Assembly: GCA_018649625.1 (NCBI GenBank) | Contig: JABIHN010000040.1 | Location: 3,189 to 67,188 of the forward strand | Direction: 5' to 3' | DNA from: Fidelibacterota bacterium | GTDB taxonomy: Bacteria; Fidelibacterota; Marinisomatia; Marinisomatales; UBA1611 | DNA length: 64,000 bases | Shown: in pieces, positions 19,763 through 62,791 of the stretch | How the letters are laid out: each line of letters starts with the position of its first letter | Numbering within the stretch: the first letter of the stretch is position 1 | Notes under the pieces: model-generated | Seen by the model: the letters and a program-made list of their open reading frames with translations, nothing else | What the model was told of the DNA's origin: nothing | Database searches by the model: none | Translations under genes and position numbers: made by a program

Positions 19763-21806
19763 AATTAATATTTTTTAACTGTCCACCATCCAATCGTCTA
19801 AAGCGGGCACAGGCGCCCCAACCACCACCTTTGTTTACAATTTTCATTAATAAAGTATTATGACCTTTTTGCAATATGACTTCTTGTACATCTTCACCAG
19901 CCGTCACTGTTCGACTGGCGTCATTCTCATGAATCAATTGACCGTTTAGCCAAGTTTTAATTCCGTCATTGCTTCCCATTTCTAATCGAACAGTTTGTGT
20001 TTTATTTGACCAAATATCAGTTTCTAAGTATACCACAGCAACCATTGGATTAATTACTTTGGCTAAATCTACATACCAATAACGGTTTGGATCAGAATCG
20101 TGGGGAACAGGTTGCCAATGTGCATATGCTCTTAATTCTGGCTCGAAGGCTGTGTCAAACAAAGAGTCTCCTTTATCTGTGAATGGTTGAGACATTCGCC
20201 AATTGATAATATGACCTTCATATTGCTCTGTTAGATTCAGCACTTGCTTATCATTAATGAGTTGTTTTTTAAGTAATGTATAATCTACATCCTGGATATT
20301 AATATTGTCTTGTATGGCTAAAACTGCTGCGGTAGCAGCGGATTGTCCTAATACCATAAAGACCGGTTCCATCCTGATAGAGCCAAAGGCAATGTGAGAT
20401 GCAGATAAGCACACAGGAACGAGCAAGTTTGTACATTCACTTATTTTAGGGATAATGGATCGGTAAGCGATAGGGTAGGGAGAAAAACCACCTAATTGTA
20501 CATCGCCTTCATTCCTTACATGTCCGCTACTATCGACATATCGCTGTACATGGTGAGAATCCATACTATACGCAGCCATGCCAACACCATCTTTGGATAT
20601 TTCATATCTCTGGCAATTGTGCTGTGTCATAACATAATCAGAAACCATACGGCGTGCTTCACGGATATATAATTGATGGGACCAATGACCATTGTCCACA
20701 AATTCATCTTTAGGTAATCCCCATTGATTCACTTCATCTTGAACCGATTTAGGGACTCTGGAATCATTAGCCAAAAACCACATAAGTCCTTTTTGATAAT
20801 CTTCATGTTCCTGAATAATTGCTTCCCGTGTGACATAATCACCATCGGGATAATCATAATTCATCCCAATATTGTCTGTGGCAAATCCACCTTTATTATT
20901 TGTATCTGTTTTTCCGTTTGGCATAGGTGTTGAAAGCTTTAGAACATCAAATACACCTGTATTCAGATAACGAAGAAGTAACTCGTATCGCATAGGATCA
21001 TAATGGTTAGGTTTAGGGAAAGGAAGTCTATTTTCTGGTATATTGGTCAAACACATACGAAAACAATACCCTTGGATTCTATGATCGCCGCTGCCTTCAT
21101 TTCCGGGGCCACCATCATTTTGAATACCGGGTAATAACCCACTATTAGGATCGCCGGGAATAATGTATGGATCGACAGGATGTTTAAAATTATGATACAC
21201 TGCACGTTTGGTTTGAACGCCATTGAGTGTTTCATCATAGACTTCATTAGACTCTCTACCGAACGTATATGATACACCGGCCTTAGCCATCAAGTCCCCT
21301 TCGTAAGTAGCATCAATGAACATTTTACCACGGAATGTTTTACCGGACTCCATTTGAATTTCTAAAATATGACTATCATTTTTTTTCATATTTTTGTTTA
21401 AGTCGATTCGTTCATTATAACTTACAGGAATATTATTTTCTAAAATAAAATCATTAAAAATATTTTCTGCTACATGGGGCTCGAATGTCCACATGGTTTT
21501 GTCCGAGATGGGAGTATTGTTATAGTGCGCATAAACCCGTTGATAAAATTCCCGAGATAAACCACCAATGGCATCTTTATTTCCAATATCAGTAGCCCCT
21601 AATCCACCCGCACTTAACCCACCTAAATGATTGCTCGGTTCAATTAACAATACAGAATATCCCATTCGGGCAGATTGAACAGCTGCTATAACACCTGCAG
21701 ATGTCCCGCCATAAACAATAATGTCATAGTTATTAAATCGGGTATTGCAGGAAGTATTTAATAGAATAGTTAAAGTGGCTATAGTTATTATTAGTAGTCT
21801 GTTCAT
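19755..21806 (-). CDS. Lipoprotein FAD-dependent oxidoreductase (FAD_oxidored / 'xanthan lyase'-annotated family) + 148-aa C-terminal recurrent module
   Basis: Lipobox LLNTSC; dinucleotide motif YDIIVYGGTSAGVIAAVQSARMG..IEP...LGG..AGG. The C-terminus (WRMSQPF...VRLEMGSNDGIKTWLNG...GGGWGACARFRRLDGG) is paralogous to the C-termini of the genes at 35797 and 40420. Confidence 0.8.
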   Translation of the reverse strand: MNRLLIITIATLTILLNTSCNTRFNNYDIIVYGGTSAGVIAAVQSARMGYSVLLIEPSNHLGGLSAGGLGATDIGNKDAIGGLSREFYQRVYAHYNNTPISDKTMWTFEPHVAENIFNDFILENNIPVSYNERIDLNKNMKKNDSHILEIQMESGKTFRGKMFIDATYEGDLMAKAGVSYTFGRESNEVYDETLNGVQTKRAVYHNFKHPVDPYIIPGDPNSGLLPGIQNDGGPGNEGSGDHRIQGYCFRMCLTNIPENRLPFPKPNHYDPMRYELLLRYLNTGVFDVLKLSTPMPNGKTDTNNKGGFATDNIGMNYDYPDGDYVTREAIIQEHEDYQKGLMWFLANDSRVPKSVQDEVNQWGLPKDEFVDNGHWSHQLYIREARRMVSDYVMTQHNCQRYEISKDGVGMAAYSMDSHHVQRYVDSSGHVRNEGDVQLGGFSPYPIAYRSIIPKISECTNLLVPVCLSASHIAFGSIRMEPVFMVLGQSAATAAVLAIQDNINIQDVDYTLLKKQLINDKQVLNLTEQYEGHIINWRMSQPFTDKGDSLFDTAFEPELRAYAHWQPVPHDSDPNRYWYVDLAKVINPMVAVVYLETDIWSNKTQTVRLEMGSNDGIKTWLNGQLIHENDASRTVTAGEDVQEVILQKGHNTLLMKIVNKGGGWGACARFRRLDGGQLKNINYE

Positions 21807-35796: not shown

Positions 35797-38700
35797 TTAT
35801 TCTTTAAGCATATTTATCTTTATATTGGATAAGTGCCCACCATCCAATCGCCTTAATCTGGCGCATCCGCCCCAGCCACCACCTTCATTCACTATTTTCA
35901 TTAATAAAGTATTTTTACCTTTTTGCAAAGTGACTTCTTTTACATCTTCCCCTGCGGTAACACCACGACTTGCATCATTTACGTGAACTACTTGACCGTT
36001 CAGCCAAGTTTTAATGCCATCATTGCTACCCATTTCCAAGCGAACCGTTTGTTCTTCATCGGACCAAAACTCTGTTTCCATATAAATAGCTGCCACCATA
36101 CTTTTAATTATTTTAGCAAAATCCACATACCAATACCGGTTTGGATCAGAAAGTTTAGGCGCGATTGTCCAGTTTCTATAAATAGCTAACTCTGGGCCAA
36201 ATTTCGTATTAAAAATACTTTTATCCGTAGCCATAAAGGGTTCAGACATGCGCCATTCTGTTATATAATCATCAAAGATCTCAATCTGATTTAAAACTAA
36301 CTGTGCATTCTCTTGAATCGATTCATTAGATATATCCGAAATGATGTTTATCAAGACAGATTTGCATTCGATAGGATGTTCGGTGTGAATTCCATTGGCA
36401 ATACTAATGCAGGATGAAGCAGCTTCTGCTTTTATATCTGCCAAAAGTAAGTAGGTTTCGGCCATTTGAAATGCTGTTATGGACATGACCTTCGATAGTC
36501 CAGATAAAACGGCTTTTTTCTCTTGAATATTAGTTGCCAAAGCCATGGCCCGTTTATATAATTCATTCGTTGTTTCTGTAGTGCGGTCACTTTCTAATTC
36601 GATGAGCCTGATTATTCCACGAAGTGCTAATGTTTTATGACCTTGGATTTTGGCATTTTCCGTCACATCAAATAATATGGGAAGTGGTGAATCATTTTTC
36701 CATTCGGATAAAGCTTTAATAGCAGATTTTCGAATGTTTTTTTCGTCATGATTTAAAAACCCAAGTAGAGATTCGTAAGCTGGTTCGTATCCCAGTTGGC
36801 CTAAGATATGAATGGCCGTTTGTTTTGGCATGAATGAAATAGCATCCAATTGATTCATAATTTCTAAACCTACAGAATCATTTAGGTTATTTCGTTCTGC
36901 CATGATGACAATTGCTTTTTCCAATTCATCTCGATCTCTATCTGATTTTGAATGTTTCAGCAGATTTACCATTTCAAAAATGTGTGGTTTACTTGCAATA
37001 AAACGAAGTGCTTTTACAGATTCAACCCGAAGTGAAGCGTTGGTATTATTTGCCAAATTCAACATTAAATCAGCACCTTTAATAATTCGCCTTTTTTGAA
37101 CGGCTCGTATGAGTTCTATTTTCACTTTTTCTTTGGCATTTGGAATATTGGATAGAATTATATCATTAATATTGTTGCCATTAAGTCTGTATAAACTGTT
37201 TCGTGCGATAGTATGTTCTTTGCCTTTCCCATGAGCGGAGACATCTGCAAGCAAGGTAACGGACGATTCTAAATTAATATCTCCCAATGCATCTAATGCT
37301 GCCAAACGAACAGCATCATTTTCACTTTCTGTGGCTAACTTGATGGTTAAGAAGACTGTGGGGTAACCCCAAAATGGTGAAAGAGCAGAAATAAGTTGTA
37401 TCTGTCCATTCACAGGCAAGTGATTTACACTTTTGGCAACGATTGAAATATCATCGGAGTTTGTAAGTAGTGAAATGGACGAAATAGCTGTGGAAATTAT
37501 TTTTGGTTCCGATTCCTTTAATGCCTTCAGAATGATGAATCCTGCCTTTCCCGGTGATGATTGGATCAATCCACGAATGGCAGCCGATCGGATAACAGGA
37601 TTTTCATTGGGGCGGCTTAATTGAGTGAATATTTTTTTTGCCTTTTTAATTTCTCCGGATTTGAGCAATTGATTTCCACATTCAAGGTACGCATTCACTA
37701 GAGTTTCCCGTTGAGTTTCGGCGACTCTTTTGAGTGATTTCTTTAATATTTTTGCTGCTTTCCAAGTGCCGATATTTCCCAACGCAGTAGCGGAAGCAGT
37801 AGCGATATCAATATTATTTGACCAGATATATTTTTTCAATATTGAAACAGCATTCCTATCTTGTCTTGCGCCAAGCGTATTAATAATGCTTATTTTTACA
37901 TTATCATTCACAACTGATAATTTTCCCCGTAGAAGAGCATTTGTAGATTCACCGGGGATTCTTTTTAAAATATATAAAGCCGTTTCATAAAGATTAGGGT
38001 CATTGAATAATTTTGCGATTGATTCGGCTGAAGAAGGATCAGCAATAAGACTGTAATATTTCCCAATCACCTGCTTGGCAGGAGTGGATGCATCCGACAG
38101 TAAAAATGAAACCAATGATTTTTCAATTCGGGACAGATAATTCGGATTTCGATGTGCAACCCGAATCATATCTTCAATAACCGTTAGGTTTTTACGGTTA
38201 TCTCCGTAATTATAATTCTTTATGCTTTCCAGTACAGCGTCAAAATTTGGTTCAAAATATTTTTCCCAACTCCGAACCGTCACAGCATCAGGGAAATCCA
38301 ATGGAATTTCTTGAGTTACATTCCCCGTAGCAGCCCATTCTGTACCACGCTGAATTACAGTAATAAATCCACCACATTCTAAAGAACGATAGGGTACAGT
38401 GCCGGTTACATGACCCAATGGCGTATGAAAGACACGCCCCTTTCCATAATCTATAGTCATCATTACGGGCTCGTGTCGGCCACTGCCGTTTCGATCTGCG
38501 GGATTTGAATAAGCAGTTGCCAAAATCTGCATATTTTTTCCGAGCCCACGCAGATGGCTGTACAACTCATCTCTGCCGCGCATCCATTTTTCTGGTAATC
38601 CCTTTGTAATGGGATGATCCATATCACGGTTAATGACCTGAAATTCATGTTGGGGACCGTGTCCACCGGCTTCCCCGGGAGTCATGTCCCGAATGAATTT

Positions 38701-40430: not shown

Positions 40431-42693
40431 ATTTTACATTAGCAAGATGTCCACCGTCTATTCTTCGTAATCGAGCACAAGCGCCCCATCCGCCACCGCC
40501 TTCATTGATAATTTTAAGTAGAAGTGTATTCCAGCCTTTGTTTAATTGTGCTTCAACTACATCATCGCCTGGCGTAACACCACGAGCTACGGAATGTAAA
40601 TGAACCATATCATCATTCATCCATGCTTTGATTCCGTCATTACTTCCCATTTCCAGCCGAACCGTCTGATCAATTTCCGACCAAACTTTTGTTTTAAGAT
40701 ATACCACAGCAACCAAACTTGTTTTCAGTCCAGTCAAATCTACATGCCAATAATTATTTGGATCTGAAAAAGCAGGTACTTTTCGCCATAAAGAATAAGC
40801 ATCCCTATCCTTTTCAGGTGCAAATTCTGTGGCATACATACTTTGTCCCGATATCATAAAAGGTTCAGACATGACCCATTCTGTAATATAATCTTCCAAC
40901 TTTTGAATATTATTAAGCACAGCCTGTGCAAGTTGGCTATGTTGATCGTTAGATGAATCGGTTATAATATTTTCAATAACGGCGCCACATTCATTGGGGT
41001 AAAGGGATTGAATATTATTGGCAATTGCGAGACAAGCTGCTTCTGCATGTTCGATTAATGCATTATCTTTAAGAAAATCCTCTGCTGTATAAAATGCTTC
41101 GATAGTTTTAATACCGTGTAATCCACGCAATGCTGCTTTAGTCTCATTTTCATTTTGGCAAGAAGAAAATACTTTTCCATACAATTTGATAGCTTCATCA
41201 ACAGGACGATAAAGTTCCACGCCAATCAGTTTTACGGCACCTTCGGCAGCCAATATTCGTTGATCGGGATCATTAGAAGATGCCAAGATATCCATTATGG
41301 AAGAAAGGGGCTGGTCGTCGTTCCAGCCTGATAAAGCAATGATGGCCGCTATTTGAACATCTGAAGATGGGTCGTTTAATAATGTTGTTAGTGTTTTTAA
41401 CGTTTCACTATCTTTGTGTTTCCCAAGAATACGAATAAAAGATAAACGCGCTTTCTGTTCTTTGGTTTTCTTGAGAGCATCTACCATTAATTTGATATCT
41501 ATTTTTGAAGAACTTGTCATCATTAACCCATTGATGGTTCCTTCTAATTCAGTCCGTTCTGAATCGGTTTTTGCGCTAACCAATAACTGAATGCAATCTT
41601 CCAAATAAGGTTTTGATGCTATGACTTTCAAAGTTTTTACCGCTTCTAAACGAACATTACCATTTTTATTTGTCGCTAATTTTAGAATGGTTTTGATGCT
41701 GTTATTAATCCGCCTTTCACCAACAGCACGAATAAATTCAACCTTTATATCGGAATTTCGATTGGATAGGCCGGATTGAATGGCGCTATCTATTTTTGAC
41801 CCATTCAAATTATATAAACTATTTTGTGCAACTATTTTTTCTTCACCATTACTTTTAGCAGCATGGGATGCCAAAATTTTCACAACTTTTGGGTCTGGTA
41901 TTTGTCCTGCTAAATCCAAGGCAACAAGTCGAATATTTTGATTCTTATTATTGATTGAAGAAAGAATAACTTTTTTGACGTTTGGTTCATTAGCGTAAGG
42001 ATGCAGGGATGATAATAATTGAATTTGTTCAGGATCGGAAAGAGAATGAAAATCGATTATGGAAGAAGCTACATTGACAAATTCCGTCAATTGAATATCC
42101 CGCCAGCGTACACGAACATTATCACCTGAATGGATTTGAAGTGCAATGGAACCTACACCTTTACCAATTTTCGGATCGTTCATATCAACCATTTTAATAC
42201 CATTGAGCCACGTTTGAACGCGGTCACCAATTACTTTTATGCGAAGTTTATTCCAGCTGCCTTGAGCTAAAACCGATTCTTTGCTCTCTGGGATTTTTTC
42301 TAGCCAACCGCGGCCGTATGATTCATAAATACCGCCTGTATCTTTTCCTTTAGGTGCCACTTCAACTTGCCAACCGGTTACTTTTGTACCTTCAAATGTG
42401 GACCGAAAAAATACACCGCTGTTTCCATCTGATTCCTGTTTAAAAAGAAGCGATAAATCAAAGTCTTTGTATTGTTTGATAGTGGAAAGATAACCGTATT
42501 CATGATCTGGACCACTTTCACACACTAATTCACCCATTTCAACATACCAGTTTTCTGTGCCGTGGACTTCCCATCCTTCTAGGTTTAATCCATTAAATAA
42601 ATTATTATTATGGATTGATTCATCCGGCAACTGGGAAGAGTAAACGAATCCAGGTATTAATATTGCAATTAATGATAGTTTCTTTAGCATCAC
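40420..42693 (-). CDS. DUF1080 (3-keto-disaccharide-hydrolase-like) domain + HEAT-like repeat region + 152-aa C-terminal recurrent module
   Basis: Signal peptide. DUF1080 pattern LFNGLNLEGWEVHG..W.VE.GELV...FDLSLLFK..SDGNSGVFFR...WQVEV...GGIYE...WNKLRIKV.GDRVQTWLNG...IALQIH. The HEAT region is paralogous to the gene at 35797. C-terminus WVMSEPF..VRLEMGSNDGIKAWMN..GGGGWGACARLRRIDGG. No CxxCH motif. Confidence 0.75.
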   Translation of the reverse strand: MMLKKLSLIAILIPGFVYSSQLPDESIHNNNLFNGLNLEGWEVHGTENWYVEMGELVCESGPDHEYGYLSTIKQYKDFDLSLLFKQESDGNSGVFFRSTFEGTKVTGWQVEVAPKGKDTGGIYESYGRGWLEKIPESKESVLAQGSWNKLRIKVIGDRVQTWLNGIKMVDMNDPKIGKGVGSIALQIHSGDNVRVRWRDIQLTEFVNVASSIIDFHSLSDPEQIQLLSSLHPYANEPNVKKVILSSINNKNQNIRLVALDLAGQIPDPKVVKILASHAAKSNGEEKIVAQNSLYNLNGSKIDSAIQSGLSNRNSDIKVEFIRAVGERRINNSIKTILKLATNKNGNVRLEAVKTLKVIASKPYLEDCIQLLVSAKTDSERTELEGTINGLMMTSSSKIDIKLMVDALKKTKEQKARLSFIRILGKHKDSETLKTLTTLLNDPSSDVQIAAIIALSGWNDDQPLSSIMDILASSNDPDQRILAAEGAVKLIGVELYRPVDEAIKLYGKVFSSCQNENETKAALRGLHGIKTIEAFYTAEDFLKDNALIEHAEAACLAIANNIQSLYPNECGAVIENIITDSSNDQHSQLAQAVLNNIQKLEDYITEWVMSEPFMISGQSMYATEFAPEKDRDAYSLWRKVPAFSDPNNYWHVDLTGLKTSLVAVVYLKTKVWSEIDQTVRLEMGSNDGIKAWMNDDMVHLHSVARGVTPGDDVVEAQLNKGWNTLLLKIINEGGGGWGACARLRRIDGGHLANVKYER

Positions 42694-48435: not shown

Positions 48436-49065
48436 ATGGACAGAAAATCAATCACATTTATCATTTGGACTTCTGTATTATCAATTTCTTATGCGATAAT
48501 TAGATATCACTTATTTAAGGGATTAAATTTTTCATTTTTTATGATTGTTTTTAATAAAGGGATTTCTCTTGCCGGAATCTTACTGCTTTCATCAGCATTT
48601 GTAGTTGGCCCTTTAGCAAGAAAATTCCCGGATATATTTAAACAATTTTTATCTGGAAAACGGTTTTTTGGAATTTGGGGATTTGGTTTAGTTTTTGCTC
48701 ATTCAGTAATTTCTTTTTTCTTTTTAAGTCCCACTTCATTTTCCATTTTTTTTACTTTAAATAAATTAAATTTGGTAGGAAATTTTATTTTAATAAGTGG
48801 AATTTTATCTTTATTATTAATTGGGTTTGCATTTGCAACATCCTTCCCTAAACTCTTGAAATTCAAATCTAAAATATTTTTTTTATCATTAAACGCTAGC
48901 TATATTGGACTTATAATTGGGGGAATTCATGTGTTACCCATTGGCATAAAAGGGTGGACAGAACCTAATTCATGGCCTGGTTTTTTATTTCCAATAACAC
49001 TTATTTCTTTTTTGGCAGTTCTATTTACTATTTATTGTCGAACTGTATTAAATTCAATTAAATAA
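48436..49065 (+). CDS. Hypothetical integral membrane protein (about 6 TM)
   Basis: 209-aa hydrophobic ORF, 11 nt upstream of the phosphoesterase gene. No family assigned. Confidence 0.5.
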
Positions 49066-52628: not shown

Positions 52629-53618
52629 ATGTCAAGACCAATAACACTTTTTACCGGGCAATGGGCGGATTTACCTATCGATGTTCTTGCTGAAAAAGCT
52701 GCATCATGGGGATATGAAGGGCTTGAGCTTGCTTGTTGGGGGGATCATCTAGATGTAAATAGAGCAGCTGTTGATTTGGACTATTGTGAAGTACATCTTG
52801 CGAAACTGGAAAAACATAATTTAAAAGTACATGCCATTAGCAATCATTTAGCTGGACAGCTTGTTTGCGATTTAAATGATGCCCGTTCCAATTCATTTGC
52901 ACCGGATGAATGTGCCGGCGATCCGGAGAAGAAAAGAGCTTGGGGCGTAGAGCAAATGAAATTATCAGCCCAAGCTGCAAAAAACTTAGGAATTGATGTT
53001 GTAAACGGGTTTACGGGTTCTTCTATTTGGCATTATTTTTATAGTTTTCCATCGGTTACTCAAAAAACATTGGATGAAGGTTATGAATATTTTGCGAAAA
53101 TGTGGAATCCCATTTTAGATGTTTTTGACGAGTGTGGAGTTAAGTTTGCTTTAGAAGTACATCCAACAGAAATTGCATTTGATATTGTAACAGCTGAGCG
53201 TGCAATTCAAGCTGTAAATGGACGAAAGGCATTTGGGTTTAATTTTGACCCAAGTCATCTTCATTGGCAAATGGTGGATCCGGTTAGATTTATTTACGAA
53301 TTCAAAGATAGGATTTATCATTGTCATATGAAAGATGCTGCATTTCAATTAGATGGGCGAACGGGTATTCTTGGATCTCATTTAGACTTTGGTGATTCCC
53401 AGCGTGGTTGGGATTTTAGATCCCTGGGACGTGGTGATATTGATTTTGAAGAAATTATCCGCGCGTTCAACCATATTGAATACAATGGTCCATTATCGGT
53501 AGAATGGGAAGATATGGGCATGGAACGGGAACAAGGCGCAGAAGAAGCATGTAATTTCGTGCGTCAATTGGATTTTAAACGGTCAGGCAGAGCATTTGAT
53601 TCTGCCTTTGAAGAATAG
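52629..53618 (+). CDS. Xylose-isomerase-like TIM-barrel protein (sugar phosphate isomerase/epimerase family)
   Basis: Pattern GYEGLELACWGDH..; LEVHPTE; NFDPSHL.WQ; HCHMKD; SVEWED. AAAGGA SD upstream. Confidence 0.85.
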   Translation: MSRPITLFTGQWADLPIDVLAEKAASWGYEGLELACWGDHLDVNRAAVDLDYCEVHLAKLEKHNLKVHAISNHLAGQLVCDLNDARSNSFAPDECAGDPEKKRAWGVEQMKLSAQAAKNLGIDVVNGFTGSSIWHYFYSFPSVTQKTLDEGYEYFAKMWNPILDVFDECGVKFALEVHPTEIAFDIVTAERAIQAVNGRKAFGFNFDPSHLHWQMVDPVRFIYEFKDRIYHCHMKDAAFQLDGRTGILGSHLDFGDSQRGWDFRSLGRGDIDFEEIIRAFNHIEYNGPLSVEWEDMGMEREQGAEEACNFVRQLDFKRSGRAFDSAFEE

Positions 53619-53627
53619 GATTATTAA

Positions 53628-55181: not shown

Positions 55182-55199
55182 TACAATTTAGATCATACT

Positions 55200-56480
55200 T
55201 TGAAATCCTATTTAGAAAAAACTGAAAATTATTTACAAAATCATTTGATTCCCTTTTGGGCGGATCGAGTCGTGGATAAACAATTTGGTGGATTTCAAAC
55301 AAACTTTGATCGGGATGGAAAACCAACTTCTGTTACTGAAAAATCCTTTTTAGCTCAAGGACGAAGCTTATTTACCATTTCACATGCCATCCGATGTGGA
55401 TATGATTGGCCAAATGGGAAGCAAGTATTGGAGCAAGGTGTTGATTTTTTATTTAAGCATTACATAGATAAAGAGAATGATGGTTATTATTGGATTGTAG
55501 ATGAAGGTGGGTCAGTTTTAGATGATAATAAAATTATTTATGGTCATGCATTTTTGATTTATGGATTATCAGAATATTCATTATTAACAGGCGATGAATC
55601 TGCAAAAAATGAAGCCATTCGATTATTTGATTTTTTACAAAATCGAATAAAAGACAATGAATATGGCGGTTATTTTGAACATTTTAATCGAACATTTGAG
55701 CCGATAAAAGCACGGAATGATATTGGTGTCTTTAAATCATTAGATGTCCATATGCATCTCATGGAAGCATTCACAACATTGGTAGAATTGACAGGTGATG
55801 ATTCTCATAAAAAAGCATTAAATGAAATAAACCAATTGATTTTTGATAAAATGATTCATCCAGACACTGGGACAGGCATATCTATGTTTACACAAGATTG
55901 GACTCCTATCGCTAATGTTGAATTGGATACAGTTTGGGGTGCAGATCGATTTGATGAAGACGGGAAATCCACATCCATCACATCCTATGGACATAATATT
56001 GAATTTGCGTGGTTATATTTATTGTCACAGGATGCCTTAAACATACCCCGAAACCAAAGTTTTATTGAAATGACTAAAATATATGAGCATACATATTATA
56101 ATGGTATTGATTGGGCAAATGGTGGATTATATGTGGAAGGCGAACGAGAAGGTGATGTGACTGAAACCAATAAAGAATTTTGGCAACAGGCGGAAGGTAT
56201 GGTTGGGTTTTTAGATGCTTATTTACTAACCAAAGATGAGAAATATTTAGATGCCTTCAAAAATTTGCATGATTTTGTTTTTACGAAAATGATTAACTGG
56301 GATGTAGGTGAATGGTTTGCTCTTTTGGATAAAAAAGGGGATGTTACATGGGATTATATGGGAACCAGTTGGAAAACATTATACCACACCGTTCGTGGAA
56401 TGTGCGAAACGGCCAATCGTCTTAAACGAATAATTGAAGAATCTGAAACAACGCCATTAAAATCAATGGTAACACCATAG
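55200..56480 (+). CDS. N-acylglucosamine 2-epimerase (AGE) superfamily protein (AGE / cellobiose 2-epimerase / aldose-ketose isomerase type)
   Basis: TTG start at 55200. Motifs FWADR..D...GGFQTNFDRDG, YGHAFLIYGLSEY, HNIEFAWLYL, FWQQAEGMVGFLDAY. Confidence 0.8.
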   Translation: MKSYLEKTENYLQNHLIPFWADRVVDKQFGGFQTNFDRDGKPTSVTEKSFLAQGRSLFTISHAIRCGYDWPNGKQVLEQGVDFLFKHYIDKENDGYYWIVDEGGSVLDDNKIIYGHAFLIYGLSEYSLLTGDESAKNEAIRLFDFLQNRIKDNEYGGYFEHFNRTFEPIKARNDIGVFKSLDVHMHLMEAFTTLVELTGDDSHKKALNEINQLIFDKMIHPDTGTGISMFTQDWTPIANVELDTVWGADRFDEDGKSTSITSYGHNIEFAWLYLLSQDALNIPRNQSFIEMTKIYEHTYYNGIDWANGGLYVEGEREGDVTETNKEFWQQAEGMVGFLDAYLLTKDEKYLDAFKNLHDFVFTKMINWDVGEWFALLDKKGDVTWDYMGTSWKTLYHTVRGMCETANRLKRIIEESETTPLKSMVTP

Positions 56481-56488
56481 GAGCCAGT

Positions 56489-57886
56489 ATGAAAGAGTCT
56501 GTTAAAAAAGAAACAAATAAAACGATTTCAAGGAGAGATTTTATTGCAAAATCTTCGGTAGCTGCTGCTGCTTTCATGATTGTACCTCGTCATGTATTGG
56601 GCGGTGTTGGTTATACTTCACCAAGTGATAAATTAAATATTGCGGCTATTGGGGTAGGTGGAAAAGGAAGATCTGATATTGCAGGTGTTGCCACAGAAAA
56701 TATTGTAGCGCTCTGTGATGTAGATGATGTGAATATGTTTAAAACTATTGATAAAGCAGGTGAATGGGCAGCCGAAAATGGACTTTCGGAAAACCCTTTA
56801 GCAAAGGTGCCAAGATACAAAGATTTTCGAGTTATGTTGGATAAGCAAAAAGATATAGATGCAGTTACAGTGAGTACCCCAGATCACTTCCATGCTGTTG
56901 CAGCCATAACGGCCATTAAACAAGGGAAACATGCTTTTGTGCAAAAACCACTTACACATTCTGTGGATGAAGCGCGAAAATTAAGTGTCGCCGCTAAAAA
57001 GGCTGGCGTAGTGACTCAAATGGGAAACCAAGGTCATGCGGGAGAAGGTATTAGGTTAATCAGTGAATGGCTTGAAGACGGTGCCATCGGTGATGTTCGT
57101 GAAGTGCATTGTTGGACAAACCGCCCCGTATGGGAAACAGGTATGCCTCGTCCTTCGACAATTCCATCTGTACCACCTACGTTGGATTGGAATCAGTGGA
57201 TCGGGCCAGCGCCTTACAGACCTTATCACCCAGATTATGCGCCATGGAGTTGGCGTGCATGGTGTGATTTCGGAACCGGTGCATTGGGTGATATGGGTGC
57301 GCATATTTTTGACATTCCTTACCATACATTAAAAATGGATCATCCTACTTCTGTTTTTGCCAGTTCATCCAAATTCAATGGAGAATCTTGGCCGGTGGCA
57401 TCCACTATTTATTATGAATTTCCACAACGGGGAAAACTTCCACCTGTCAAATTGACTTGGTTCGATGGGGGCATTATGCCACCAAGGCCAGAAGGAATCG
57501 AACCGGGAAGACGGATGGGCGATGGTGATGGCGGAATTATGTTTTATGGTGATAAAGGAATGATTATGTGTGGCTGTTATGGAAGACAACCAAGACTGAT
57601 TCCAGAAACAAGTATGAAGGCGTATAAACGACCTGCTAAAACATTGAAACGATCACCTGGAATTCATCAAGAGTGGGTGCAAGCTATCAAAGATGGTACC
57701 GATGGTACTTCCAACTTTGAATATGCAGCTATGTTGACCAGCACGATGTTATTGGGAAATGTAGCTATTCGAATGGCGCCACGAAGTACCAAATTAGAAT
57801 GGGATGGCAAAGAAGGTAAATTCACAAATATGGATGAAGCGAATGAATATCTTGGTCGTAAATATAGAGATGGCTGGAGTCTGTAA
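56489..57886 (+). CDS. Tat-exported Gfo/Idh/MocA-family oxidoreductase (paralog of 60054-61394)
   Basis: Tat signal ISRRDFIAKSSVAAAAFMIVP; motifs IAAIGVGGKG, VSTPDHFH, VQKPLTH, MGNQGHAGEG; AGGAG SD upstream. Confidence 0.85.
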   Translation: MKESVKKETNKTISRRDFIAKSSVAAAAFMIVPRHVLGGVGYTSPSDKLNIAAIGVGGKGRSDIAGVATENIVALCDVDDVNMFKTIDKAGEWAAENGLSENPLAKVPRYKDFRVMLDKQKDIDAVTVSTPDHFHAVAAITAIKQGKHAFVQKPLTHSVDEARKLSVAAKKAGVVTQMGNQGHAGEGIRLISEWLEDGAIGDVREVHCWTNRPVWETGMPRPSTIPSVPPTLDWNQWIGPAPYRPYHPDYAPWSWRAWCDFGTGALGDMGAHIFDIPYHTLKMDHPTSVFASSSKFNGESWPVASTIYYEFPQRGKLPPVKLTWFDGGIMPPRPEGIEPGRRMGDGDGGIMFYGDKGMIMCGCYGRQPRLIPETSMKAYKRPAKTLKRSPGIHQEWVQAIKDGTDGTSNFEYAAMLTSTMLLGNVAIRMAPRSTKLEWDGKEGKFTNMDEANEYLGRKYRDGWSL

Positions 57887-57906
57887 ATTATTATTAGGAG
57901 ATAATT

Positions 57907-58515
57907 ATGAATAAAAAATATATAATTGGTTTGGTTACAATAATTGCTGTTGTTTTTGCTACAACAATGATGAGCAATCCATCTGAAAAAGGGTGGGAAT
58001 CATTATTCAACGGTAAAGATCTTACGGGCTGGCGTGCCAGTGAAAATGGTGATTTCCGTGTAGAAGATGGCGCCATAGTTGTTCGGGGAAATCGAGCTCA
58101 TTTATTTTCTGATCGAGAATTCACAAATTTTGAATTTAAATGTGAAATAATGACAAGTCCCAACAGTAATTCAGGCTTGTATTTTCATACACAATATGAA
58201 GAATCCTGGCCCAGTCGTGGATACGAAGTGCAGGTAAATACATCCCATGGCGATCCCGTGAAAAATGGAAGTCTTTGGGGTGTGGTTAGATCATTTGAAC
58301 CAATGGCAAAAGATAATGAATGGTTTACTTTGAGCCTAAAAGTCGAAGGCAAACATGTGGTGACCAAAGTTAACAGCAACGTTGTAGTGGATTATAATGA
58401 ATTGGAAGGTGTGACGGCGGGCCGAAGAATTGATAAGGGATCTTTTGCTATTCAAGCCCACGACCCAAAAAGTATGGTGCGATATAGAAATATTATGGTT
58501 AGGGAGCTGGATTAA
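57907..58515 (+). CDS. DUF1080 (3-keto-disaccharide-hydrolase-like) domain protein, membrane-anchored or secreted
   Basis: N-terminal hydrophobic helix. Pattern GWESLFNGKDLTGW..S..G.F.VEDGAIV...EFTNFEFKCE...NSNSGLYF....GYEVQV...NGSLWG...EWFTLSLKVEGK....VN......GSFAIQAHDP.S.VRYRNI.V. Confidence 0.85.
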   Translation: MNKKYIIGLVTIIAVVFATTMMSNPSEKGWESLFNGKDLTGWRASENGDFRVEDGAIVVRGNRAHLFSDREFTNFEFKCEIMTSPNSNSGLYFHTQYEESWPSRGYEVQVNTSHGDPVKNGSLWGVVRSFEPMAKDNEWFTLSLKVEGKHVVTKVNSNVVVDYNELEGVTAGRRIDKGSFAIQAHDPKSMVRYRNIMVRELD

Positions 58516-58518
58516 TTC

Positions 58519-60033
58519 ATGTGGGTATTCACCAAAACTTTATTGTTATTCGTTATTGGGCTTATTGGGTTTTCTTGCGCTCCGGAACTATATGTAGAAA
58601 TTGAAGCAGATCAACGCATGGGTGATTGGGCAGGAACTCGAATAAATAAAGAAGGTAGAGAAGTACCCATGGCAGCTCAATTGATCGCTTATAAAAATGG
58701 TCGGTTTACGGCAAACCTTTTAACAGAGTTCGATAAAAAAGATAATCATTTGGCCACCATCAGTGGTAAGGTAAAAGGAAATGAGATTCAGCTCATTGGT
58801 TCCTACAAATATGGATCACGGTGGAAAGGCATTGTGACAGATTCATCTTTCAATGGTACATATCATGGACAGAGTCATGGCACATTTGCCTTGAAGAGAG
58901 TAACCCGATTATCTCCAAATTTGGGAAAAGAAGCACCAGAAGGAGCTATTGTATTATTTAATGGTTCCAATTTGGATGCATGGACCCACGAATCCAGTGT
59001 TCCTGGTTATATTGATTTATCCAAACATGTAGGCGGGAGTGAATGCGCTGAATACTTAAAAGCTAAAGTTTGGTCCTATATAGATCAAGACGCTATTTTA
59101 GAATTGGGAAGTAATGATGGTATTGCAGGCTGGTTGAATGGTGAAAAAATCATTTCTGAAAATGTATTAAGACGAGCAAGTGCTGGGGAAGAAGCGGTTA
59201 GAGTTTCACTTAAATCCGGATGGAATCAATTCTTAATGAAAATTGTGAATGCAGGTGGCGGTTGGGGTATGTTTGCTCGGTTGACAGATGATGATGGCAA
59301 TCCATTAAGTACTATTTCTGAATATGTGGATGGTGTTCAATCAAGAGATTTTCTGACTAAAAATGATAATTATTTAACACTTTGGGATATGGCTGGTCCT
59401 TATAGAATTAAAGGAAAAAATGGTCGAGAAATTTTCGACCATCCATTTCCACCGGAAAAAAATGATTCAAATGTAGAATGGACAAAATTAGATATTCATA
59501 AATTAGGTGATGCCGCTCAATGGATTATAAAAAATGAAGCAGTTGAAATAAAACCGGGTACATCGGGAATGCTCACGCGACAGAAATTCAGAAACTTCAC
59601 ATTACATATTGAATTTCGCTTACCCTTCATGCCAAATTCGAATGGGCAAGGCCGTGGAAATAGTGGTGTTTATCTTCAAGGTCGGTATGAAGTTCAAGTT
59701 TTAGATAGTTATGGCTTGGAAGGCAAGGATAATGAATGCGGTGGTATCTATAAAGTGGGTGCGCCGGCAGTGAATATGTGTGCGCCACCTATGCAATGGC
59801 AATCCTATGATATTGATTTTACTGCACCAATATTTAATAAAACCGGAAAAAAGATTATCGATGCTCGAGTAACCGTGAATCATAATGGAGTGATTATTCA
59901 TGATAATGTTGTTATTCCAAAACCTACGGGTGGAGCTGTAAATATGAATACAGATAAACCGGGCGTTTTATTGTTGCAAGATCATGGGAATCCTGTGCAA
60001 TATAGAAATATTTGGATTGTTGAAAATAATTAA
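58519..60033 (+). CDS. Lipoprotein with unassigned N-domain and a DUF1080 domain interrupted by a copy of the recurrent module
   Basis: Lipobox LIGFSC. The first DUF1080 strand LFNGSNLDAW (aa ~146-155) is separated from the rest (WIIKNEAVEIKPG..FRNFTLHIEFR..GNSGVYLQGRYEVQVLD..GGIYK..WQSYDIDF...VNHNGV...LLLQDHGNPVQYRNIWI) by AILELGSNDGIAGWLNG...GGGWGMFARL plus YLTLWDMAGPY. Confidence 0.7.
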   Translation: MWVFTKTLLLFVIGLIGFSCAPELYVEIEADQRMGDWAGTRINKEGREVPMAAQLIAYKNGRFTANLLTEFDKKDNHLATISGKVKGNEIQLIGSYKYGSRWKGIVTDSSFNGTYHGQSHGTFALKRVTRLSPNLGKEAPEGAIVLFNGSNLDAWTHESSVPGYIDLSKHVGGSECAEYLKAKVWSYIDQDAILELGSNDGIAGWLNGEKIISENVLRRASAGEEAVRVSLKSGWNQFLMKIVNAGGGWGMFARLTDDDGNPLSTISEYVDGVQSRDFLTKNDNYLTLWDMAGPYRIKGKNGREIFDHPFPPEKNDSNVEWTKLDIHKLGDAAQWIIKNEAVEIKPGTSGMLTRQKFRNFTLHIEFRLPFMPNSNGQGRGNSGVYLQGRYEVQVLDSYGLEGKDNECGGIYKVGAPAVNMCAPPMQWQSYDIDFTAPIFNKTGKKIIDARVTVNHNGVIIHDNVVIPKPTGGAVNMNTDKPGVLLLQDHGNPVQYRNIWIVENN

Positions 60034-60053
60034 CCTACGAAAAAGGGAAAACT

Positions 60054-61394
60054 ATGAAGAAAAATATTAAAACTATTAACCGTAGAGATTTTATTAAAAA
60101 ATCCACTGCAGTAGCGGCAGCATTTACCATTGTTCCACGATATGTGTTAGGTGGAACGGGATTTATTGCGCCCAGCGATAAATTGAATATTGCTTGTGTG
60201 GGCGTGGGTGGAAAAGGGTATTCTGATACACACGGTGTAGCGTCTGAAAATATTGTTGCCTTATGTGATGTGGACGAATTGAAAGCCGCTAAAACATTTA
60301 ATGATTTTCCAAATGCTAAACGATACACAGATTTTCGTGTCATGTTGGAAAAAGAAAAAAACATTGATGCTGTCACTGTATCTACTCCAGACCACAATCA
60401 TGCAGTCGTTGCTATGGCAGCCATGGATTTAGGTAAACATGTTTATGTGCAAAAACCATTAACCCATACGGTTCATGAAGCGCGGATGTTGGCGAAAAAA
60501 GCTAAAGAAATGGGTGTGGTCACCCAGATGGGTAATCAAGGTCATGCAGGTGAAGGCGGACGTTTAATTAATGAATGGATTTGGGATGGAGCCATTGGCG
60601 ATGTAACGGAAGTTCATGTATGGACAAATCGTCCAGTATGGCCGCAAGGTATTGGAAGGCCGGGAACATTACCATCCGTACCGAAAACGTTAGATTGGAA
60701 TCAATGGTTAGGACCTGCAAAATGGCGACCTTATCATCCGGCTTATGTACCTTTTGCATGGCGTGGTTGGTTGGATTATGGTACAGGTGCTTTAGGTGAT
60801 ATGGGTGCGCATTTAATTGATCATCCATATTGGGCATTGAAAATGGAATATCCTGATACAGTGCAAGCGAGTTCAAGCCCAATTAATGATGAAACATATC
60901 CAAATGCATCCATGGTAACCTATGAATTTCCAGCTCGGGAAGGGATGGTACCGGTCAAAATGATTTGGTACGACGGTGGACTTATGCCACCAAGACCCAA
61001 AGAGTTAGAAGCAGGCCGAAGAATGGGAGATGGCGGCGGCGGTGTTTTATTCTATGGTACTAAAGGGAAAATGATGTGTTCGACCTATGGTGGTAATCCA
61101 CGCATTATTCCAGAAACAGCGATGAAAGCATATCAACGACCCAAGAAAACAATTCCACGTTCTCCGGGGATTCGGGAAGAATGGATTGAAGCAATCAAGG
61201 GTGGCTCTCCCACAACATCTCATTTTGGCTATGCATCCAAATTGACAGAAACTATGTTGTTGGGTTGTATCGCATTGCGTGTGAAAGACAATAATATGAT
61301 TTTAGAATGGGACGGAAAAAAGGGTCAGTTTACTAATTACGATGAAGCGAATGCTTTTATTCATAAAGAATATCGAGACGGTTGGACATTATAA
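60054..61394 (+). CDS. Tat-exported Gfo/Idh/MocA-family oxidoreductase (paralog of 56489-57886)
   Basis: Tat signal INRRDFIKKSTAVAAAFTIVP; motifs IACVGVGGKG, VSTPDHNH, VQKPLTH, MGNQGHAGEG. Colinear with 56489-57886 along its whole length. Confidence 0.85.
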   Translation: MKKNIKTINRRDFIKKSTAVAAAFTIVPRYVLGGTGFIAPSDKLNIACVGVGGKGYSDTHGVASENIVALCDVDELKAAKTFNDFPNAKRYTDFRVMLEKEKNIDAVTVSTPDHNHAVVAMAAMDLGKHVYVQKPLTHTVHEARMLAKKAKEMGVVTQMGNQGHAGEGGRLINEWIWDGAIGDVTEVHVWTNRPVWPQGIGRPGTLPSVPKTLDWNQWLGPAKWRPYHPAYVPFAWRGWLDYGTGALGDMGAHLIDHPYWALKMEYPDTVQASSSPINDETYPNASMVTYEFPAREGMVPVKMIWYDGGLMPPRPKELEAGRRMGDGGGGVLFYGTKGKMMCSTYGGNPRIIPETAMKAYQRPKKTIPRSPGIREEWIEAIKGGSPTTSHFGYASKLTETMLLGCIALRVKDNNMILEWDGKKGQFTNYDEANAFIHKEYRDGWTL

Positions 61395-61452
61395 GGAAAC
61401 CACTGATGGGTAACTTAATAACCTAAACATTAATTGATTTGTGCAGAGATTT

Positions 61453-62757
61453 ATGATATATAAGACAGTTATCGTTACTATTTCATTAATTGGGTTCATA
61501 TTAGCCCAACCAAACCAATGGGAACTTGCAAATGGTACTGAAGGTATTTATATCAACGATATAGATATTTTTCACCAAAACCCTGACACAGTGTATGCCA
61601 CTGGTAATCAGTTTTTAATTAGCACAGACAGAGGAGAAAATTGGGTTAGTGTTTCAGGAATGGCTTTTTCATCGGTTATTGAAGTTGACCCGTTTGATTC
61701 AAAAAGGATTTATTTAAGTCATAATGTTCTTCCTTCAGATGGAAATGAGGTTTTAATAACCGCGGATGGCGGAATTAACTGGGATACTATATTTGAAGAA
61801 TACGGCTGGCCTGATTTACCTATAGTAGAAACTGACCCAGGCGATCTAAATACAATTTATATTGATGTAGTACCCAACACATTTTATAGAAGTTCCGATC
61901 AGGGAAATACTTGGGATAGTATTCCTTCTCCTAATGCATCTGGTTTAACATCACTCGCTATTGCACCATCCAATATAAATATTCTCTATGCAGCGTATTT
62001 TGGTCCAAATTATATATATAAAAGCACAGATCGCAGCCAAACATGGAGTCAACTACCGTTTCCGTCTATGTACGGTGGTGTGCTTGTTCTTGCAGTAGAT
62101 CCAGATACTCCCGATATCGTTTATACAACAATGTCTGCAGGGGAATCACGAGGGGTGTATAAATCAATTGATGGTGGCCAAAATTGGGAACTGAAGAATA
62201 ATGGAATAGAAAATTTGGATGGTTATGATTGGATACAAACTATTGTTATAAACCCCAAAGAGTCAGAGACACTTTATTTGGGAGTAACAAGCTCTTATAC
62301 AAATGATCAAAATCCAATGCTTTATGAATCGAATGATGGTGCAAATAGTTGGCATTCATTTTCTGTTGGAATGCCTGAATATGGTACAGTTCAGACATTA
62401 TCGGTAGATACAATGAATAGTAGAATGTATGCAGGGGCCAGAAATGGAATATATACCCTTGATTTTGAACTTTCTGTTGATGAATACGATTTTCAAATTC
62501 CAATATTAATTTCACTCAAGCAAAATTATCCAAATCCGTTTAATTCTTCAACAAAGATTGCTTACAGTTTGTCTAAAAATTCATTTGTTAAATTGACCGT
62601 ATTTGATATTTCCGGTAAAAAAATTAAGAGATTAGTTAATGAAATAAAAAACACTGGAGAACATTCAGTAATGTGGGACGGAACAGATTTAAATAATAAA
62701 TCCGTTCCATCTGGAGTTTATTTTTATGTTTTGAAAAATGATCAGGGTTTATTTTGA
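61453..62757 (+). CDS. Secreted BNR/Asp-box beta-propeller protein with T9SS-type C-terminal sorting domain cut short by an in-frame TGA
   Basis: ATG at 61453 preferred over GTG at 61441. Asp-boxes STDRGENW, TADGGINW, SSDQGNTW, STDRSQTW, SIDGGQNW, SNDGANSW. CTD sequence LKQNYPNPFNSSTKIAYSL...SGVYFYVLKNDQGLF, then TGA. The canonical end KKMILLK-TAG follows in the same frame (62758-62781). Confidence 0.7.
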   Translation: MIYKTVIVTISLIGFILAQPNQWELANGTEGIYINDIDIFHQNPDTVYATGNQFLISTDRGENWVSVSGMAFSSVIEVDPFDSKRIYLSHNVLPSDGNEVLITADGGINWDTIFEEYGWPDLPIVETDPGDLNTIYIDVVPNTFYRSSDQGNTWDSIPSPNASGLTSLAIAPSNINILYAAYFGPNYIYKSTDRSQTWSQLPFPSMYGGVLVLAVDPDTPDIVYTTMSAGESRGVYKSIDGGQNWELKNNGIENLDGYDWIQTIVINPKESETLYLGVTSSYTNDQNPMLYESNDGANSWHSFSVGMPEYGTVQTLSVDTMNSRMYAGARNGIYTLDFELSVDEYDFQIPILISLKQNYPNPFNSSTKIAYSLSKNSFVKLTVFDISGKKIKRLVNEIKNTGEHSVMWDGTDLNNKSVPSGVYFYVLKNDQGLF

Positions 62758-62791
62758 AAAAAAATGATTCTGCTAAAATAGGAAACTAAAA

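Follow-up and report, generated by a model that had tools for sequence, protein, structure and literature searches.

Two Tat-exported dehydrogenases flanking two DUF1080 proteins in a Fidelibacterota genome: a candidate periplasmic module for oxidation-assisted glycoside cleavage

What is the role of a compact gene cassette in which two exported dehydrogenases enclose two proteins of the DUF1080 family? We addressed this question in a 64,000-nucleotide stretch of the genome of a Fidelibacterota bacterium (assembly GCA_018649625.1, contig JABIHN010000040.1, positions 3,189 to 67,188; hereafter the window), where four such genes lie side by side at positions 56489-61394. The outer genes encode Gfo/Idh/MocA oxidoreductases with twin-arginine translocation (Tat) signals, GFO1 and GFO2, and the inner ones two DUF1080 proteins, DUF1080-A and DUF1080-B. 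We consider it likely that the cassette is an envelope (periplasmic) module cleaving glycosides by oxidation, beta-elimination, hydration and reduction. This interpretation is based on homology, active-site conservation, fold, gene linkage and export signals, from which we infer the catalytic activities, the substrate and the division of labour. To our knowledge, the oxidation-elimination-hydration route was characterised, between 2021 and 2024, solely in gut Bacteroidales (Bacteroides/Alistipes) and in Agrobacterium.

The genes BT2157-BT2160 are required for growth on trehalose and other glycosides; BT2158 is a Gfo/Idh/MocA protein with a Tat signal, and purified BT2157, a DUF1080 protein, uses up 3-keto-trehalose (Liu et al. 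2021, PMC8121099). In the Alistipes (AL) and Bacteroides (BT) systems, AL/BT3 (BT2158) oxidises C3 using a tightly bound, non-exchanging NAD, AL/BT1 (BT2156, a TIM barrel) eliminates from 3-keto-beta-glucosides, and AL/BT2 (BT2157, a DUF1080 lipoprotein) eliminates from 3-keto-alpha-glucosides and hydrates 2-hydroxy-3-keto-glucal; the product, 3-keto-glucose, re-oxidises AL/BT3, separate lyase/hydratase partners being needed, and analogues of the pathway occur in a wide variety of organisms (Nasseri et al. 2024, bioRxiv 10.1101/2024.03.25.586180). The Nidetzky group presents the same four-step logic together with a separate 2-hydroxy-3-keto-glucal hydratase (PDB 8RO4), and the titles of PDB entries 8RR2 and 9FBE name '3-keto-glycoside eliminase/hydratase' complexes. 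A preliminary description of the window had pointed to a 3-keto pathway built from Gfo/Idh/MocA, TIM-barrel and DUF1080 proteins, and these papers indeed describe one with exactly these families. The same description had traced the name of DUF1080 to a hydrolase of Agrobacterium, which probably does not hold: the Pfam name most likely comes from the BT2157 work, and the Agrobacterium hydrolase genes are given as unknown (Liu et al., PMC8121099).

GFO1 and GFO2 resemble the glycoside 3-dehydrogenases of this pathway. They are 63% identical to each other (288/459 positions) and colinear except for one insertion of 14 amino acids (aa) in GFO1. Their top NCBIfam model is NF058561, 'BT_2158_fam glycoside 3-dehydrogenase' (513.4 bits for GFO1 and 556.6 bits for GFO2), ahead of the second-best family (below 70 bits) by more than 440 bits; the matches extend over profile positions 1-436 of 487, leaving the C-terminal ~50 profile residues without counterpart. 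In a search against the PDB, the best solved structures for GFO2 were 8TDF (E 4.4e-117, aa 36-443) and 8TDH (E 3e-114). The sequence of 8TDF is 90-91% identical to Alistipes loci, and we identified it as AL3 because the Alistipes montrealensis orthologue carries the exact AL3 residues at their published numbers (Q161, R192, W195, D248, H252 and Y349). All six of these residues of the NAD/glycoside pocket are kept in GFO1 (Q181, R212, W215, D268, H272 and Y364) as well as in GFO2 (Q162, R193, W196, D249, H253 and Y345). Of these, the equivalents of R192, W195 and Y349 are missing from the third GFO_C2 gene of the window (39141-40430). A quick neighbour-joining tree grouped the two proteins with Planctomycete and Calditrichia proteins in a clade sister to AL3/BT3. 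Next to the DUF1080-B homologues of other phyla lie GFO2 orthologues with 67-70% identity; GFO1 has diverged more, and a Marinimicrobia lineage related at the 84% level has both.

In both dehydrogenases the twin-arginine motif is followed by a hydrophobic stretch, which predicts Tat export, and the Tat signal model TIGR01409 matches GFO2 with 20.3 bits (cut-off 16.7). The stretch after the motif, 'AAAFTIVPRHVLGG', is almost identical across phyla in GFO2-type proteins (56489-56610 and 60054-60160 in the window; loci L007, L008, L009 and L092 of our comparison set). Such conservation is unusually high for the h-region of a signal peptide, and this segment may remain on the mature protein as an anchor.

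Tat export and the GFO fold are also found in enzymes of glycoside hydrolase (GH) family 109, one structure of which (6T2B) appeared among the PDB matches. GFO1 and GFO2 might then be self-contained NAD-dependent glycosidases of the GH109/GH4 type, a single active site carrying out oxidation, elimination, hydration and reduction, with the DUF1080 genes as functionally unrelated neighbours. However, the match to 6T2B (E 4.6e-06) is confined to the Rossmann part (aa 33-184), as opposed to E 4e-117 for AL3. AL3 itself depends on separate lyase/hydratase partners, and the adjacency of GFO and DUF1080 genes is kept across phyla. Full-length likeness of the two proteins to GH109 or GH4 was not found, and we rejected this explanation, which is highly improbable, on the grounds of similarity.

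The inner genes encode the putative lyase/hydratases that an AL3-type dehydrogenase would need. The DUF1080 model PF06439 matches DUF1080-A over its whole profile (146 bits) and also matches the main body of DUF1080-B, the two proteins being 25% identical across this domain. For residue mapping, AL2/BT2 orthologues were taken from the Alistipes and Bacteroides loci found with the 8TDF sequence; in a 290-aa Bacteroides orthologue, the eight residues reported for BT2 are all present, with matching numbering. Of these channel residues (E103, N134, E164, Q166, Y190, K245, Q273 and H275), six have counterparts in both window proteins, with the E-x-Q register obtained by shifting the MAFFT alignment manually by one residue; neither protein has the full set. 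Thus, N134 corresponds to N88 in DUF1080-A and N381 in DUF1080-B, E164/Q166 to E107/Q109 and E391/Q393, Y190 to W124 and Y411, and Q273/H275 to Q183/H185 and Q487/H489. In DUF1080-A, N88, E107, Q109, Q183 and H185 are invariant among 37 homologues, whose consensus at position 124 is Tyr; in DUF1080-B, N381, E391, Q393, Y411, Q487 and H489 are invariant among 52 homologues (42-84% identity), an alignment in which L146 and W155 are invariant too. The AlphaFold2 model of DUF1080-A (pLDDT 89.1) matched AL2 (8V31), BT2 (8TDA) and 8RR2 in Foldseek with query TM-scores (TMq) of 0.70-0.72, with 3OSD and 9FBE also returned, and the DUF1080 part of DUF1080-B (AlphaFold model, pLDDT 89.9) matched AL2/BT2-type structures (8V31, 8TDA, 3OSD, 8RR2 and 9FBE) with target TM-scores (TMt) of 0.47-0.53. 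The closest solved structure to the DUF1080-B body is 4QHZ (E 4.5e-33).

DUF1080-B deviates from a simple DUF1080 protein in its architecture. In the intact sequence, Pfam covers only profile positions 24-186 of PF06439 (aa 333-500). When aa 136-160/162 were joined in silico to aa 330/333-504, the full profile was matched (positions 1-186, 144-145 bits), whereas the C-terminal part alone or fused to an irrelevant segment scored 122-124 bits. The DUF1080 domain is thus split after its first strand (LFNGSNLDAW) by ~170 residues, a topology judged by this Pfam splice experiment. Further upstream lies an all-beta domain, which occurs also in HEAT-DUF1080 proteins such as P0258; a Pfam scan of this domain and of the insert gave nothing significant. 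Proteins of Sedimentisphaerales, Phycisphaerales and Calditrichae, and many from metagenomes, share the entire architecture (43-50% identity, 94-100% coverage), which is conserved within Marinimicrobia as well, and a database search with DUF1080-B returned more than 7600 matches. In one metagenome assembly (L004, 8453-9980), the gene is broken into open reading frames (ORFs) of 459 and 61 aa, by a frameshift or an assembly error.

The insert consists of a jelly-roll and a linker, and three further copies of the jelly-roll occur in the window at the C-termini of other proteins: a DUF1080-HEAT protein, a ThuA-HEAT protein and an FAD-dependent oxidoreductase. These three copies are 60-75% identical among themselves, and the module is recognisable by the motifs LE[LM]GSNDGI..W[LM]NG and GWN.LL[ML]KI[VI]N.GGGWG..AR. 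With the N-terminal domain plus the insert as query, the number of representative clusters matched was 5026 at E <= 1e-3 and still 1370 at E <= 1e-10. The jelly-roll occurs in more than 1000 such clusters and, where present by itself, lies mostly at the C-termini of proteins of 800-1200 aa. A Pfam scan of seven proteins (six bearing the module and one ThuA-DUF1080-B fusion) found HEAT in five, ThuA in two and DUF1080 in two, and one of the seven had only weak PA14 and WD40 matches. The shared jelly-roll physically ties the cassette to the group of HEAT proteins that the preliminary description had called a 'HEAT triplet'. The nested copy probably binds glycan or docks DUF1080-B to partner proteins, and the module provides a handle for finding other components of the system.

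As to its genomic arrangement, most of what the preliminary description had read from the sequence stands. The ORF coordinates bear out four closely packed genes on the + strand, with intergenic gaps of 20, 3 and 20 nucleotides (nt); the outer two are colinear paralogues with SRRDFI and NRRDFI motifs (by identity, Pfam and, for GFO2, TIGR01409), the inner two carry DUF1080 (146 and 132 bits), and the 'DUF1080-with-insert' was recovered by splicing out aa 161-332, although the additional N-terminal beta domain had gone unmentioned. Its tally for the 64 kb, six GFO genes and four DUF1080 domains, was also correct. Of the claim that one inner protein is membrane-anchored and the other a lipoprotein, the second half holds for the 504-aa protein (LIGFS-C20); the anchor of the 202-aa protein is not established, since, judging from the sequence, a cleavable Sec signal is just as compatible with its N-terminus, in which hydrophobic aa 6-20 are followed by VFA/TT. 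Finally, the four genes are adjacent but do not form a free-standing unit: they belong to a co-directional block of 10 genes (48436-61394), whose 3' end they form and in which no gap exceeds 20 nt. We base the operon call on these gaps, since a promoter/terminator scan of 47800-64000 was uninformative, yielding fewer promoter-like sites than shuffled sequences (52 vs 66.8) and no convincing terminator between genes. AGGAG/GGGAG/AGGGA-like ribosome-binding sequences precede all four cassette starts, and the G+C content is ~31-43% throughout the window, without compositional break at the cassette.

Table 1. Features of the cassette, of the 10-gene block that it ends and of the shared jelly-roll module, in window coordinates.
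Feature	Position	Strand	Basis
GFO1, Tat-signal Gfo/Idh/MocA, putative BT2158/AL3-type glycoside 3-dehydrogenase, 465 aa	56489..57886	+	PF01408 + PF19051
Twin-arginine motif SRRDFI of GFO1, aa 14-19	56528..56545	+	read from sequence
DUF1080-A, small secreted or anchored protein, 202 aa, putative 3-keto-glycoside lyase/hydratase	57907..58515	+	PF06439
DUF1080-B, three-part lipoprotein, 504 aa (N-terminal beta domain + DUF1080 interrupted by jelly-roll)	58519..60033	+	
Signal of lipoprotein type in DUF1080-B (hydrophobic helix followed by LIGFS-C20)	58519..58578	+	sequence; helix aa 2-19 in model
N-terminal all-beta domain of DUF1080-B, aa ~30-130	58606..58908	+	model strands 35-128
First strand(s) of split DUF1080, LFNGSNLDAW, aa 136-160	58924..58998	+	splice test restores profile 1-23
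Insert in DUF1080 of DUF1080-B, aa 161-332, jelly-roll + linker	58999..59514	+	model strands 176-270
Jelly-roll module nested in DUF1080-B, ~105 aa, aa ~160-275	58996-59343	+	model strands 176-270
Main DUF1080 body of DUF1080-B, aa 333-504	59515..60030	+	PF06439, 132 bits
GFO2, Tat-signal Gfo/Idh/MocA, putative BT2158/AL3-type glycoside 3-dehydrogenase, 446 aa	60054..61394	+	PF01408 + PF19051
Twin-arginine motif NRRDFI of GFO2, aa 9-14	60078..60095	+	sequence; TIGR01409
First gene of block, 209-aa hydrophobic protein	48436..49065	+	no family assigned
Secreted metallophosphoesterase-domain protein, 781 aa	49077..51422	+	PF00149; N-terminal hydrophobic signal
Cytoplasmic Gfo/Idh/MocA oxidoreductase, 392 aa	51438..52616	+	Pfam; no signal; PDB 3V5N E 4e-103
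Cytoplasmic xylose-isomerase-like TIM barrel, 329 aa	52629..53618	+	no signal peptide; PDB 8RO4, 2ZDS matches
MFS transporter, 517 aa	53628..55181	+	PF07690
AGE-family (GlcNAc/cellobiose/mannose) 2-epimerase-isomerase-like protein, 426 aa	55200..56480	+	PF07221, 179 bits
Jelly-roll copy, C-terminus of DUF1080-HEAT (gene 40420-42693)	40435..40710	-	phmmer E 3.7e-25; 42% identical to insert
Jelly-roll copy, C-terminus of ThuA-HEAT (gene 35797-39153)	35821..36129	-	phmmer E 4.9e-24; 43% identical to insert
Jelly-roll copy, C-terminus of FAD-dependent oxidoreductase (PF12831, gene 19755-21806)	19767..20075	-	phmmer E 1.2e-24; 45% identical to insert

The genes preceding the cassette in the block could complete the pathway in the cytoplasm. 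The TIM barrel is, by sequence, a full-length homologue of the 2-hydroxy-3-keto-glucal hydratase 8RO4 (E 6.1e-51, aa 9-325 against chain residues 15-332) and also matches PDB 2ZDS (E 1.5e-110). The signal-less Gfo/Idh/MocA oxidoreductase is a candidate reductase of an imported 3-keto sugar. For the AGE-type protein, every NCBIfam equivalog scored far under its cut-off.

The association of the two families is conserved. In all seven contexts that we fetched around DUF1080-B homologues (the 84% Marinimicrobia relative, L090; Phycisphaerales, L007; Calditrichia, L008; and L009, L091, L092 and L093), an AL3-type GFO_C2 gene lies within 7 kb. As positive control, Bacteroidales AL3 loci had a BT2-type DUF1080 within 6 kb in 74 of 80 cases and a BT1-type TIM barrel in 56 of 80. 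Other recurrent neighbours of DUF1080-B are a TIM barrel, a small DUF1080 protein, a ThuA-HEAT protein accompanied by a second subtype of GFO, and a NapC/NirT-cytochrome-FGE-sulfatase fusion. We discarded the small DUF1080 genes of these other phyla as orthologues of DUF1080-A (16-22% identity, Q-S-E in place of Q-x-H). ThuA is fused to DUF1080-B homologues in the proteins P0244 and P0112, and the window itself encodes, at 1840-3273 (+), a secreted protein in which a xylose-isomerase-like TIM barrel is fused to DUF1080, beside a cytoplasmic GFO at 334-1587 (+). Both lyase folds of the 3-keto pathway are thereby united in a single polypeptide; the TIM part of this fusion resembles 3P6L/4KW2 and not AL1/BT1. 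Both kinds of fusion support a functional coupling of these folds.

We propose the following mechanism. GFO1 and GFO2 would fold around tightly bound NAD(P), be exported by the Tat system and then attack an oligosaccharide or glycoside at its non-reducing end, oxidising the C3 hydroxyl of the terminal sugar. The resulting 3-keto group would acidify H2, and the DUF1080 proteins could then eliminate the aglycone or remaining glycan to give a 2-hydroxy-3-keto-glycal, and/or hydrate this glycal to a 3-keto sugar. The latter might be reduced by the same dehydrogenases, recycling their cofactor, or be imported by the MFS carrier for completion in the cytoplasm by the TIM-barrel homologue of the hydratase, the GFO without signal and the AGE-type epimerase. 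The presence of two paralogous dehydrogenases and two unrelated DUF1080 subfamilies most likely widens the range of sugars or anomers that can be attacked. The periplasmic 3-keto-glycoside role advanced in the preliminary description is supported by homology (AL3 at E 4e-117 with six of six residues, the DUF1080 fold and the linkage). Its broader suggestion of an expanded redox-assisted deglycosylation capacity is consistent with the TIM-DUF1080 fusion, with the ThuA-HEAT, GFO and DUF1080-HEAT genes and with the 8RO4-like TIM barrel.

Several observations weigh against this interpretation. On the side of the dehydrogenases, neither GFO1 nor GFO2 reaches the equivalog cut-off of NF058561 (750 bits), and they are no more than 43-46% identical to AL3 (43% for GFO1 against an AL3 orthologue). 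On the side of the DUF1080 proteins, the distance to BT2157 is very large: neither DUF1080-A nor DUF1080-B retrieved 8TDA, 3OSD or 8V31 by phmmer against the PDB at E <= 0.01, and the DUF1080-HEAT protein of the window reaches the BT2/AL2 structures at E ~0.08 only. BT2 residues E103 and K245, located in BT2-specific loops, are missing from both; in DUF1080-A, W124 stands where BT2 has Tyr190, a position at which most of its homologues have Tyr. Both are putative lyase/hydratases that lie outside the BT2157 subfamily, in uncharacterised subfamilies. A periplasmic TIM-barrel beta-lyase is absent from the four-gene cassette, and a GFO gene adjoins the close homologues of DUF1080-A in none of three Planctomycete contexts. 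In addition, the Foldseek matches of DUF1080-A included CBM66 modules, ERGIC-53-type lectins and GH16 enzymes, which share the concanavalin-like fold, and a DUF1080 protein, THTE_1561, is cited as an endo-xanthanase/lichenase.

These last observations, the two missing BT2 residues and the resemblance of the nested jelly-roll to galactose-binding-like domains would suit another explanation, in which the DUF1080 proteins are glycan-binding modules or GH16-like endo-glycanases preparing oligosaccharides, the dehydrogenases act on freed sugars in the way of glucose-fructose oxidoreductase or of inositol/levoglucosan dehydrogenases, and 3-keto-glycosides are not eliminated at all. We find this quite unlikely. 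The GH16 catalytic motif E-x-D-x-x-E is absent from BT2/AL2 (Nasseri et al. 2024) and from our DUF1080 alignments; the Q-x-H pair needed for hydration, a function lost in the BT2 H275N mutant, is invariant in both DUF1080 families. For the two dehydrogenases, the E-value of the AL3 match is better by ~100 orders of magnitude than that of any structure of the inositol, levoglucosan or GFOR type, and both proteins retain the residues that hold the glycoside in AL3.

A different question is where the electrons go. Around the cassette and its relatives, several cytochrome genes were observed. In the contig of the window (L001, 18353-21341, ~7 kb past GFO2 and outside the window), a further Tat-signal GFO gene is followed by a multihaem c-type cytochrome gene (19715-21341), with three genes for type IX secretion system-type secreted proteins between GFO2 and this pair. 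In the 84%-related lineage, a Tat-GFO and multihaem cytochrome pair comes immediately after GFO2 (L090, 12953-16179). NapC/NirT-type tetrahaem cytochrome-FGE-sulfatase fusions are encoded at L008 9934-11448, L009 10905-12413, L091 11666-12727 and L093 10354-11661. The cassette proteins recur on many metagenome contigs (239 index blocks), including those of the Joint Genome Institute (JGI) samples 3300024256 and 3300004111, which we take to be Saanich-Inlet-type oxygen-minimum-zone samples.

The cassette might accordingly have a respiratory role, with the Tat dehydrogenases passing electrons on through c-type cytochromes in the manner of LacABC/ThuAB, the DUF1080 proteins serving for glycan binding or as auxiliaries, and cleavage being secondary. 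The Tat-GFO and cytochrome pairs downstream of GFO2, the recurrence of the cytochrome-FGE-sulfatase fusions near DUF1080-B in other phyla and a host presumably living in oxygen-minimum zones would all fit. Nasseri et al. (2024) themselves propose cytochromes as possible re-oxidants. However, there is no cytochrome gene within the cassette or its 10-gene operon, and the DUF1080 proteins keep conserved lyase/hydratase residues, which speaks for catalysis over mere binding. We regard a respiratory role as unlikely; it is, besides, partly compatible with glycoside cleavage and does not exclude it.

The same observations, together with the shared jelly-roll, lead to a wider and rather speculative scenario, improbable on present evidence, in which the cassette is one arm of a phylum-spanning envelope system of Marinimicrobia/Fidelibacterota, Planctomycetota and Calditrichota, made of AL3-type Tat dehydrogenases, ThuA-HEAT proteins, an FAD oxidoreductase and DUF1080 lyase/hydratases that are linked by the jelly-roll, wired to cytochromes and coupled to respiration. 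If so, it would possibly amount to a supramolecular 'oxidative glycosidase' in which the electrons of C3 oxidation are conserved, unlike in the redox-neutral gut system, and the jelly-roll would be a docking or substrate-channelling element.

Other parts of the window and related loci contain additional genes of these families. On the - strand, at 33598-42693, lie genes for a 724-aa protein without assigned family, the ThuA-HEAT protein (1118 aa), the Tat GFO_C2 protein (429 aa) and the DUF1080-HEAT protein (757 aa); in Phycisphaerales, Calditrichia and other loci, the ThuA-HEAT gene and a GFO of this subtype are immediate neighbours of the DUF1080-B homologue. DUF1080-A has close homologues (50-65% identity) in Planctomycetes, including Gimesia. 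A TIM barrel and a HEAT protein are adjacent in two of their three contexts and both are missing in the third; in Gimesia and another Planctomycete (L094 6001-9485 and L096 6001-9939), the closest homologues have a TIM barrel and a HEAT-repeat protein as neighbours and no GFO gene. A large glycan-utilisation region of the window (6648-33625) encodes a PfkB kinase-HAD fusion, a DHDPS-family (NanL-like) lyase, a GH38 alpha-mannosidase, a GH20 hexosaminidase, GH3 and GH28-like proteins, two PA14-bearing proteins, a sialate-O-acetylesterase-like protein and a BNR protein. These surrounding genes hint at N-glycan or sialoglycan-type substrates without settling the matter. Close to the start of the window, an ORF of 190 aa (3924-4496, - strand) encodes an IS200-like Y1 transposase (PF01797, E 7.7e-06).

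A homologue of the 504-aa protein with 79% identity bears the NCBI name 'Candidatus Marinimicrobia bacterium', a name that now corresponds to Fidelibacterota, in the FCB group. Marinimicrobia are an abundant uncultured marine lineage thought to be important for the turnover of particles and glycans in the dark ocean. If our interpretation of the cassette as a glycoside-cleaving module is correct, it offers concrete functions for two very large uncharacterised DUF1080 subfamilies, bears on the recurrent GFO/DUF1080/ThuA-HEAT sets of the Planctomycetota and Calditrichota loci examined here, and suggests that CAZy-style counts of GH genes under-estimate the glycan-degrading capacity of such organisms. 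Neither the pathway itself nor the pairing of a Tat-GFO with DUF1080 is new, both being already published (Nasseri et al. 2024; Kastner et al. 2024). What is new here is the doubled dehydrogenase, the replacement of the BT2157 type by two uncharacterised DUF1080 subfamilies, a split DUF1080 with a nested module that HEAT proteins (ThuA-HEAT and DUF1080-HEAT) and FAD oxidoreductases also bear, an operon that includes a cytoplasmic completion set, and the marine Marinimicrobia host.

How does this cassette compare with named systems? The closest solved structure to the DUF1080-B body, 4QHZ (BDI_3914 of Parabacteroides distasonis; 38% identity, TMt 0.66), is a structural-genomics protein of 246 aa without assigned function, and hence gives no functional clue; it is matched over chain residues 67-245 only, and neither the jelly-roll nor the N-terminal domain has a counterpart in the match. 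In Agrobacterium, the oxidation step reportedly uses another type of dehydrogenase (FAD/GMC or ThuAB). As far as can be judged from PDB titles and PMC13273386, the A. tumefaciens pathway (Kastner et al. 2024, Angew. Chem. e202410681) shares the sequence of oxidation, elimination, hydration and reduction, and its hydratase 8RO4 is matched by the TIM barrel encoded upstream of the cassette. The ThuAB (rhizobial trehalose/sucrose) and LacABC (Caulobacter lactose) 3-dehydrogenases (PMC9007349) likewise produce periplasmic 3-keto-disaccharides and have DUF1080 genes nearby, and a ThuA domain occurs in the window (35797-39153) and, elsewhere, fused to DUF1080-B homologues (P0244). In contrast to them, the cassette has no ThuA, GMC flavoprotein or cytochrome subunit, and its dehydrogenases are of the AL3 type.

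The AL1-AL4/BT2156-BT2159 operon (Liou 2020; PMC8121099; Nasseri et al. 2024, Nature 631:199) has in common with the cassette a Tat GFO beside a DUF1080 lipoprotein and a periplasmic location. The likeness extends to the active sites of the dehydrogenases (43-46% identity to AL3, all six residues), to the DUF1080 fold with its core N / E-x-Q / Y / Q-x-H residues and to a cytoplasmic GFO in the operon. However, the AL/BT operon has a single Tat dehydrogenase where the cassette has two, and the DUF1080 pair of the window belongs to other subfamilies, without BT2 E103 and K245, one of its members being split and extended by an N-terminal domain. The secreted TIM-barrel beta-lyase and the SusR-like regulator of the AL/BT operon have no equivalent here, the TIM barrel of our operon being cytoplasmic and of the 8RO4/2ZDS type. 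Conversely, an MFS carrier, an AGE-type epimerase and a metallophosphoesterase are added to the set, and the host is a marine Marinimicrobia (Fidelibacterota) bacterium instead of a gut Bacteroidales.

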